Virus genome (UHGV): UHGV-1556036
DNA length: 11,503 bases
Source of the DNA: a virus
Reading direction: 5' to 3' (one strand)
The notes under the pieces are model-generated. The model did no database searches. It was not told the DNA's origin and saw only the letters and a program-made list of their open reading frames with translations. Both the position numbers and the translations under genes were made by a program. The stretch's first letter is position 1. The number at the start of each line of letters is the position of its first letter. Of this stretch, positions 1,037 to 1,888 are shown in pieces.

Positions 1037-1888
1037 ATGGCAAAGCTGGACTGGAAAAAACTGGAGCAGGCATTCCGACGCGAACATGCCAGAACAGGCA
1101 TAAAACTTCAGGACTGGTGTCGACAGAACAATATCAGCTATGGCACGGCTCGTCGGTACATAAAACTGCGCAAAAACTCCCCCAAAAATACAGAGGAAAG
1201 TGCGCAGAAAAATGCGCAAAAAAGTGCGCAAATTGACACTCAAAAAAGCGCACAAAAAAATGCGCATGGAGCTGATGACGAGTCCAGTAATGACGAGTCT
1301 TACGGCGATGATGGCAGTGATGAAAAATGCGCAAAAAACTGCGCAAATTCGGCAGAAACGAAACGCAACAGCAGATCGGGTAATCCTCACCCCGTTGCCC
1401 GGTTTAGCGACCGTAACACCCACGCCGTGAGACACCGTGGATATGCGAAGTATCTTGAGGCAGATAACCTCATGGATGATGCGTCCGATATGGTGCTGTT
1501 CGATGAACTGGTGTTCACCCGGGCCCGCGCACTTTCAGTAACAGGAACACTGAAAAAAATGTTCGCCGACCTGAAAGAGGCGGCTGACGTGGAAACCCGT
1601 GTTGCCCTGTACGACAAAATACTCAAAGCAGAACAGGCCCTTGACCGGAATATTGCCCGTATCGAGTCAATTGAACGCTCATTGCTGACGCTGGACGTTC
1701 TGGCGGAAACAGCACCAAAACTTCGTGCTGACCGGGAAAGAATCAACGCCGCCAGAGATAAACTCAGAGCGGAAACCGATATTCTGACCAGCCAGCGCCG
1801 GGGGGTTATTACGCCAGTCAGTGACATCGTGTCATCGCTGCATGAAATGAGTAATTCGGGGAGACTGGATGACATTCCGGAAGAATGA
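1037..1888 (+). CDS. Putative terminase small subunit (HTH DNA-binding N-terminus, low-complexity linker, coiled-coil C-terminal region)
   Basis: N-terminal segment (KLEQAFRREHARTGIKLQDWCRQNNISYGTARRYIK) looks like a helix-turn-helix. C-terminal half is helical and heptad-like. Lies immediately upstream of, and overlapping, the large terminase gene. At 283 aa it is larger than typical TerS proteins, so the call rests mainly on position and the HTH. Confidence 0.6.
   Translation: MAKLDWKKLEQAFRREHARTGIKLQDWCRQNNISYGTARRYIKLRKNSPKNTEESAQKNAQKSAQIDTQKSAQKNAHGADDESSNDESYGDDGSDEKCAKNCANSAETKRNSRSGNPHPVARFSDRNTHAVRHRGYAKYLEADNLMDDASDMVLFDELVFTRARALSVTGTLKKMFADLKEAADVETRVALYDKILKAEQALDRNIARIESIERSLLTLDVLAETAPKLRADRERINAARDKLRAETDILTSQRRGVITPVSDIVSSLHEMSNSGRLDDIPEE
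1196..1350 (+). repeat. Array of palindromic TGCGCA hexamers in A-rich spacers inside the putative terS gene
   Basis: TGCGCA at 1201, 1213, 1225, 1261, 1328 and 1340, plus GCGCAC at 1248. Spacing is often 12 bp. Encodes the low-complexity peptide AQKNAQKSAQIDTQKSAQKNA...CAKNCANSA. Confidence 0.6.

Follow-up and report, generated by a model that had tools for sequence, protein, structure and literature searches.

A hexamer array inside the small terminase gene

The 11,503-nucleotide stretch of UHGV virus genome UHGV-1556036 analysed here (11.5 kb; henceforth the window) is the start of the late region of a 933W-like (Sepvirinae), short-tailed Escherichia coli phage or prophage. On its plus strand, positions 1037–1888 hold terS, the gene for a small terminase subunit (TerS) of 283 amino acids (aa), which was identified from the list of open reading frames (ORFs), from the PHROG profile phrog_370 and from the annotated terS genes of relatives. 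The match to phrog_370 (‘terminase small subunit’) spans TerS residues 1–283 (E-value 2.5e-117), i.e., a full-length fit to the 933W-like small-terminase family (PHROG 370), and the gene lies 5′ of those for the large terminase subunit (TerL) and the portal. Inside terS stands an array of TGCGCA hexamers, which an earlier note on this DNA had put forward as a candidate pac site for headful packaging. We found this array to be constrained as DNA and to recur in distant relatives, and comparison with known systems suggests that it is probably the part of a pac site that TerS recognises.

By direct reading and pattern search, TGCGCA starts at positions 1167, 1201, 1213, 1225, 1261, 1328 and 1340, all within terS. 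The earlier note had counted six TGCGCA copies and one GCGCAC variant between 1196 and 1350, which is correct; the seventh copy, at 1167, lies just 5′ of that range. Seven of the ten copies in the window fall within 1167–1345 (the remaining three start at 2397, 3143 and 5527), a clustering into 179 bp that has a chance probability of at most about 1e-8 (analytic upper bound). The extended motif AARYGCGCAVA occurs four times, always in the array, against an expected 0.18 occurrences, and the A content is 42% in the array region compared with 25% in the window.

All elements of the array are read on the plus strand. A first hexamer (site 0; 1167–1172) is in frame +1 (codons K-L-R-K), lies 8 bp 3′ of the codons for the N-terminal helix described below, and is kept in most alleles with the peptide ARRYIKLRK. 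The left cluster (1197–1266; frame +2, S/N-A-Q-K) holds the hexamers at 1201, 1213, 1225 and 1261 together with the GCGCAC variant at 1248 (aGCGCAc, 1247–1253), and its spacers are runs of A5–A7. The right pair is a 28-bp two-site module (1322–1349; hexamers at 1328 and 1340; repeat family D1) in frame 0 (K-C-A-K-N-C-A-N), which is present in 6/6 aligned close relatives, alleles of the 933W type among them. Between the two lies a spacer (1267–1321) that encodes an acidic stretch and contains direct repeat D2; the gap from the last hexamer of the left cluster to the first of the right pair measures 61 bp (1267–1327). With the variant included, successive sites are spaced by 34, 12, 12, 23, 13, 67 and 12 bp, and Tandem Repeats Finder reports 12-bp arrays at 1197–1232 (3 copies) and 1323–1347 (2.1 copies). 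Of the 12-bp periodicity remarked on earlier, a strict register is limited to the first three units.

Other features share this stretch. Direct repeat D2 of the spacer consists of two perfect copies of the 10-bp sequence ATGACGAGTC (1275–1284 and 1290–1299), 15 bp apart, in the very zone in which the analogy with P1 would place a cut. A sigma-70-like promoter match (TTGACA-17-AAAAAT; 10/12) covers 1233–1261 on the plus strand, in the degenerate fourth repeat slot; its −35 element is not kept in close alleles, where the peptide changes from IDT to IDD.

Constraint on the DNA and domain architecture of TerS

We recoded residues 42–107 with random synonymous codons drawn from the window’s own codon usage. 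The recoded sequences contained on average 0.9 TGCGCA hexamers, compared with 7 observed, and none of 100,000 trials reached 7. The hexamer is also read in three different frames, namely as C-TG-CGC-A (L-R) at 1167, as nnT-GCG-CAr (S/N-A-Q) in the left cluster and as TGC-GCA (C-A) in the right pair. Moreover, a 28-bp module at 1207–1234 (GAAAAATGCGCAAAAAAGTGCGCAAATT) is repeated at 1322–1349 with 27 of 28 positions identical (96%) and a shift of one frame, so that the same DNA is translated as KNAQKSAQI at one place and as EKCAKNCAN at the other. Coding does not account for the array: the constraint acts at the level of the DNA, not of the protein. The suspicion voiced earlier that the periodicity is hard to explain by coding is thereby supported, by the recoding, by the use of three frames and by the persistence of the motif where the peptide is not kept (see the next section).

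At the protein level, the linker peptide reads ...ESAQKNAQKSAQIDTQKSAQKNAHG...EKCAKNCANS. An AlphaFold2 model built with 38 homologues has helices at residues 6–20, 24–30 and 35–41 (predicted local distance difference test, pLDDT, 76–89), a disordered region at residues 46–131 (pLDDT <50) and a long coiled coil at residues 145–252 (pLDDT >90). The N-terminal three-helix bundle (codons 6–41; 1052–1159, plus strand) is a putative helix-turn-helix (HTH) DNA-binding domain, given the model and a weak similarity to PacA of phage P1, and its recognition helix is presumed to be YGTARRY, followed by IK. By the domain borders of the model, the array lies wholly within linker-coding DNA, and the disordered linker is the predicted place of lowest protein constraint. 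Both the translation and the model agree with the earlier description of a lysine- and glutamine-rich linker between an HTH and a coiled coil. A PDB sequence search with TerS returned nothing significant.

Conservation of the motif in distant relatives

The comparison drew on 77 terS loci in IMG/VR, 18 in GTDB species representatives and 296 matches in protein databases. The helix motif ARR[YH]IK is present in 26 distinct terS sequences, whose products are 38–66% identical to the window protein and whose hosts are Enterobacterales (Escherichia, Salmonella/Citrobacter, Yersinia, Serratia, Brenneria, Xenorhabdus and Morganella). The linker peptides of these 26 relatives cannot be aligned. Nevertheless, each of the 26 has 3–8 TGCGCA within the 330 bp 3′ of the helix, compared with 0–3 in about 3 kb of flanking DNA (both strands). 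The hexamers occupy at least two frames in 26/26 sequences and all three in 13/26 (S/T-A-Q, V/L-R-K and C-A-K). Codon choice follows the same pattern: in the linkers, GCG encodes 101 of the 111 alanines that precede glutamine or histidine (91%), as against 4 of 17 elsewhere in terS (24%). The 149 sites collected yield a directional consensus, i.e., A-rich at −4 to −2, then N, TGCGCA, R, A and A, and an Aeromonas homologue, read by eye, has the same array. As far as these comparisons reach, it is the DNA motif and not the peptide that is conserved across distant genera.

The earlier note had also considered that the linker might have expanded recently, and had suggested comparing repeat copy number among the terS genes of relatives. 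We made this comparison, and copy number does vary between close alleles: TerS of the TGCGCA type has 283 or 279 aa, and the 933W type has 2, 4, 5 or 7 IDHE units. Recent expansion as the origin of the array was nonetheless not borne out, as the array itself is old.

Repeat classes paired with the N-terminal helix

Over bases 900–2000, the window shares 99.1% identity with Escherichia phage PhiR12_3 (from ECOR13) and, in two pieces, 86–98% with more than 200 Shiga toxin (Stx)-converting phages; the terS region is 91–99% identical to the terS regions of Stx phages. The part of 900–2000 that fails to align with the Stx-converting phages is the repeat region. The 933W-type allele (helix ARTRIKM; P13374, phi191 and 933W itself) has 4–5 AAAT(C/T)GATCATG units with a 12-bp spacing, which encode I-D-H-E. 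A Salmonella allele (helix ARTQIK) has five (T/C)GATCA at an exact 12-bp spacing, embedded as AAAAGTGATCAAAA, i.e., the window site with its central CG replaced by AT. In a third allele, found in Pectobacterium, Brenneria and Symbiopectobacterium (helix AKR[YH]ITI), there are 3–5 TTCGCA in two frames and zero TGCGCA. Finally, one allele (L104:1501–2316; Logan SRR13938607_206) joins a window-type C-terminal domain to an unrelated, Sigma70_r4-like N-terminal HTH, after which there are three copies of GGTACGAAA, in two frames, and two of GTACCTCAAAAA; its sequence marks it as a further specificity class made by domain swapping. Across the alleles compared, the repeat motif changes when the N-terminal helix changes, and the array is always directly 3′ of the HTH-coding segment.

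These classes also bear on the description of the array as palindromic. The TGCGCA core is indeed self-complementary, but the extended site is directional (A-rich, N, TGCGCA, R, A, A) and a sister class uses the non-palindromic TTCGCA; that the hexamer is a palindrome is therefore probably incidental.

The linker-coding DNA is also mosaic in places. PhiR5_2 (L003:1638–2444) has a 933W-type HTH and a GATCA array and becomes window-like from the right TGCGCA pair onward (NSRSGNPHPVARFSD), a stretch at which P13374 differs (IRGSRLLPPSNAFSQ). PhiR5_2 is visibly mosaic, and the comparison points to a recombination junction within the DNA that encodes its linker.

The pairing of HTH and array extends to other proteins. 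A scan of IMG/VR for three TGCGCA with a 12-bp spacing returned 75 stretches, and 17 of them stand just after an HTH domain of the ‘MAK.DW...ARRY[IL]K’ type; most of the 75 are perfect tandem repeats of 12 bp in ORFs of various kinds and were set aside as unrelated. In several viral contigs, the ‘MAK.DW...ARRYIK’ domain and its TGCGCA array are fused N-terminally to a TerS of the Terminase_2 family (PF03592), with 5–10 TGCGCA per ORF (L105:3101–4096, L157:729–1739 and L133:4277–5329, the first of these clearly with two clusters). Since PF03592 proteins have a DNA-binding fold of their own, these fusions represent a TerS architecture with two DNA-binding domains. On the evidence of such contigs, HTH and array travel as a unit between terminase scaffolds.

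A similar arrangement was seen in a 343-aa protein with an N-terminal HTH_36 (PF13730) that is not recognisably a terminase (L127:1417–2445 and L161; IMG/VR 3300039249_000004 and 3300040944_000004). Directly behind the HTH, its gene has 7 TGCGCA copies, which are spread over three frames (VAQKSAQGDAQKSAQPLRRKVRKGCAQKCAQ). By analogy with lambda O, this array may be an origin-like set of iterons inside its own gene.

Going beyond the earlier note, these sequences indicate that among enterobacterial prophages HTH and array form a cassette that is portable and exists in several specificity classes. In its full form, the proposal is that of a self-targeting cassette, in which an HTH carries its own binding sites in the linker DNA and moves among 933W-type TerS, Terminase_2 TerS, P1 PacA and possibly non-terminase HTH proteins, with classes that lie one or two hexamer bases apart and are paired with changes in the recognition helix. 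We hold this broader proposal tentatively and give it somewhat less than even credence.

Comparison with known packaging sites

The closest known system is pac of phage P1 (Sternberg and Coulby), and on sequence grounds the window array is most aptly regarded as a variant of this P1-type site. P1 pac comprises 161 bp inside pacA, with seven TGATCA/G hexamers (HEX4 and HEX3), a site for integration host factor (IHF) and central cleavage, and synonymous mutation of its hexamers lowers the titre about 9-fold (PMC10028697). In the P1 record (NC_005856), the hexamers lie at pacA codons 65–76 and 108–116, in two frames and with the cuts between them; they begin some 20 codons past NTARRYLR, the HTH helix of PacA, and encode I-D-H, N-D-Q and G-D-H, which resembles the I-D-H-E units of 933W-type terS.

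The two systems are alike in several respects. Both sites lie inside the small-subunit gene, soon after an N-terminal HTH helix (NTARRYLR in P1, GTARRYIK in the window), and both consist of directly oriented hexamers that use more than one frame and form two clusters (4+3 with a spacer of about 90 bp in P1; 6–7+2 with 61 bp in the window). Both belong to headful, generalized-transducing phages, and the 933W-type sister allele even has a (T/C)GATCA hexamer that encodes I-D-H. The N-terminal 45 or so residues of PacA and the window TerS share a weak similarity (W..F....G......N..TARRY; BLASTP E-value 4e-4, hhalign probability 62%), with reciprocal PHROG cross-matches of the two N-terminal domains at 6.3e-5 and 1.9e-4, and PacA residues 1–50 have sub-threshold matches to HTH_23/HTH_24. 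Outside this domain, we detected no direct similarity between TerS and PacA, and a pairwise comparison of TerL with PacB likewise found none, both matching only the generic phrog_2. The differences are equally clear: the window hexamer is TGCGCA, whereas that of P1 is TGATCA/G and contains a Dam site; the P1 spacer has an IHF site, whereas no IHF consensus is found in that of the window; and the window TerS, with 283 aa and a coiled coil, is unrelated to the rest of PacA (397 aa). The window array contains no GATC, so control by Dam methylation would be impossible in the TGCGCA allele.

In P22, pac consists of one asymmetric site with a length of about 22 bp. The pac sites of P22 (gene 3) and Sf6 (gene 1) resemble our case in lying within terS of a short-tailed, headful phage, and the window portal is P22-like (PF16510). 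The window, however, has a multi-copy hexamer array where P22 has one site, and its TerS has no detectable similarity to the P22 gp3 and Sf6 gp1 families (no Pfam match, no PDB sequence match). The precedent of P22, invoked in the earlier note, stands for a pac site inside terS, but the hexamer clusters of P1, placed in pacA after an HTH, fit better than a single 22-bp site. A further parallel, by analogy only, is the lambda origin, in which 19-bp iterons inside the linker-coding segment of gene O are bound by the N-terminal domain of O. There too, repeated sites for a protein’s N-terminal domain lie in the interdomain-linker segment of its own gene; the lambda sites, however, serve replication, are 19 bp long and belong to an unrelated protein.

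Likeness to SPP1/SF6 pac (pacL, pacC, pacR; boxes a, b and c) lies in the direct repeats, which flank the cut in SPP1/SF6, in the A-tract-rich, bendable DNA, and in the fusion of a window-type HTH and array to Terminase_2 TerS in other phages. In SPP1/SF6, a ring of HTH domains is modelled to wrap about 100 bp, and pac and the beginning of the TerS gene overlap (PMC4737164). By contrast, the SPP1 repeats are longer, few and partly situated in promoters, and the window TerS does not match PF03592 and so is not a Terminase_2 protein.

Genomic context and mode of packaging

The gene terL (1869–3575, plus strand) encodes a TerL of 568 aa with matches to the terminase profiles phrog_2 and phrog_24361, and in PhiR12_3 it is annotated as ‘T4-like headful’. 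It overlaps terS by 20 nt (1869–1888) in a different frame. The window further contains Rz (268–735; ORF list and domain/profile searches), the P22-like portal gene (3575–5719), an unassigned ORF of 335 aa (5877–6884) and the gene for a capsid protein (6907–8121). The gap of about 300 bp between Rz and terS (736–1036) has no annotated gene in PhiR12_3; in relatives (L002:453–725 and L004:794–1345), different cargo fills this position, with GER2 having a gene for an Ais-like phosphatase in the opposite orientation, and P13374 and phi191 a regulator of the Rha family. It looks like a variable insertion spot directly 5′ of the packaging genes.

With respect to packaging, the ends of 933W virion DNA resisted sequencing and were read as probably terminally redundant, and 933W carries out generalized transduction (PMC3752737). 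Terminal redundancy and generalized transduction fit a headful mechanism that needs a pac site. In the literature searched, we found no pac site named for 933W or for Stx phages. Several database records are rotated to begin at the terL ATG, which splits terS across the record ends. We had considered a record start at the array as a proxy for virion ends and rejected it, as records that end inside terS begin at the terL ATG through automated reorientation. Two further candidates were set aside: the ‘Gally’ phage of LF82, whose pac maps in terS, was judged unrelated, its 40-kb headfuls being too small for a 933W-like genome of about 61 kb; and Morganella phage Mecenats66 is unrelated, having a GpA-type terminase.

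The array as a candidate pac site

Taken together, the recoding result, the use of three frames, the conservation of the motif, the pairing of motif classes with helices and the headful-type packaging of 933W-type phages support the earlier proposal of a pac site inside terS. We consider it probable, chiefly from sequence comparison, that the TGCGCA array is the TerS recognition part of a headful pac site at which packaging starts. Three elements of this reading, namely TerS as the binder, the identity of the site as pac and the position of the cut, are all ones that we infer. In the proposed mechanism, one TerS oligomer would place several of its HTH domains on successive hexamers among the 7–8 directly oriented (A-rich)-N-TGCGCA-R-A-A sites, which form a left cluster (here including site 0; 1167–1266) and a right pair (1328–1345). 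The A5–A7 spacers and the period of about 12 bp would make the DNA easy to bend around this oligomer. The bound complex would then recruit TerL, which is expected to make its cut close to the array and to drive translocation of the DNA; on the model of P1 and SPP1, the first cut would most likely fall between the clusters (1267–1327), after which packaging would proceed in one direction by the headful.

Several points weigh against this reading. No mapped virion ends or read-start pile-ups for 933W-like phages were found in the records and literature searched. The assignment of the HTH, drawn from the structural model and a weak similarity, is putative: Pfam has no family for the window TerS or for its first 50 residues, and a Foldseek search of the AlphaFold2 model against the PDB gave only generic coiled-coil matches (E-value >0.1). 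The helix codons lie only 8–40 bp from the array, and physical adjacency of this kind could by itself make the two co-vary, through linkage during mosaic recombination; the three main classes may, moreover, go back to no more than three events in evolution. Evidence independent of linkage, however, is that every class retains a motif of its own in several frames. P1 PacA combines an ARRY helix with TGATCA sites, so the mapping from helix to hexamer is no simple code. In E. coli, 933W-type alleles retain the right-hand TGCGCA pair beside their GATCA left cluster; the pair is absent from the Salmonella GATCA allele, and in the 933W type it would most simply be a remnant left by recombination inside the linker. 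The two-cluster layout is no constant of the family, since many relatives have just one cluster, and no match to the IHF consensus WATCARNNNNTTR with at most one mismatch was found in 1141–1420, where a consensus scan may miss weak sites. Finally, the TerS DNA-binding domain of SF6/SPP1 showed no preference for the repeats of the pac box (PMC4737164), and therefore repeats in a pac region need not be base contacts.

This last point leads to the main rival explanation, in which the array is a pac signal read by shape only: a ring of weakly binding HTH domains of TerS would select bendable, nucleosome-like DNA, in which A5–A7 runs alternate with GC-rich steps at about 12 bp, by its conformation and regardless of the bases of the hexamer. 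Such a reading has a precedent in SF6/SPP1, for which the authors propose conformational selection of bent DNA with runs of 5–7 AT pairs among GC/CG steps (PMC4737164), and the window array has exactly this composition. It does not explain, however, why an exact TGCGCA is kept at 149 sites in distant genera, nor why classes with the same A-rich context differ by a defined one or two bases (TGATCA, TTCGCA). Exact conservation of the hexamer and such small differences between classes speak for at least some read-out of bases, and we regard recognition by shape only as unlikely. We are slightly more doubtful of a DNA element with another role, bound by TerS or by another protein, for example in autoregulation of the late operon or as origin-like iterons. 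The comparative evidence establishes constraint on the DNA without naming the process, and the non-terminase HTH_36 protein with its 7 TGCGCA means that HTH and array are not exclusive to terminases. Against this, the module is found on three small-terminase scaffolds (933W type, Terminase_2 and the homologous HTH of P1 PacA), the equivalent hexamers of PacA are a proven pac site, and these phages replicate by lambda-like O/P functions located elsewhere.

Explanations that do without a DNA-binding protein fare worse still. One is that the region is a low-complexity linker selected as protein, in which slippage has copied an (S/N)AQK unit and the regularity of the DNA is a by-product of recent duplication. 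Variation in unit number between near-identical alleles and the predicted disorder of the region would agree with this, but a purely peptide-level repeat is at odds with one hexamer encoded as S-A-Q, as L-R-K/V-R-K and as C-A-K in three frames, with the recoding result (0.9 versus 7), with the excess of GCG for alanine in A-Q/H (91% in the linker versus 24% elsewhere) and with a motif that persists where peptides are unalignable. We consider it very improbable. The same holds for a structure in RNA, whereby pairing hexamers, or minus-strand hairpins followed by runs of T, would block antisense transcription or shape the mRNA. The fold of 1160–1350 is indeed more stable than expected (z = −3.9), and six terminator-like minus-strand hairpins with T-rich loops and T-tails lie at 1177–1345, compared with 1.3 expected. 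Both, however, follow automatically from a self-complementary hexamer in an A-rich context, the stems have only 6 bp, and the TTCGCA class, which cannot pair in this way, folds no better than shuffled sequences (z = −0.8). An Rfam scan of the array gave no match beyond a chance microRNA (E-value 0.84). Recognition of the array by TerS as part of a headful pac site hence remains the reading that we favour.

Implications for Stx phages and enterobacterial prophages

Phages of the 933W type carry Shiga toxin genes and perform generalized transduction. The starting point and the direction of packaging determine which chromosomal neighbours can be mobilised, also by lateral transduction from the prophage. 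Every 933W-type repeat contains GATC (L004:1760–1830; Salmonella, L103:1631–1694), like the Dam-gated pac of P1. By analogy with P1, Dam methylation might gate packaging in Stx phages proper, though not in the TGCGCA allele.

Used together as a pac signature, HTH class and hexamer class would make packaging origins predictable in thousands of enterobacterial prophages, and could explain and predict the cross-packaging of phages and satellites. The matched variants of protein and DNA offer a natural set for studying how TerS recognises DNA, a question left open by the SF6/SPP1 structures. If HTH and array do form a portable cassette, pac sites and packaging specificity could become directly readable from sequence for many enterobacterial prophages, Shiga-toxin phages included, and with them the cross-packaging of phages, satellites and chromosomal regions.

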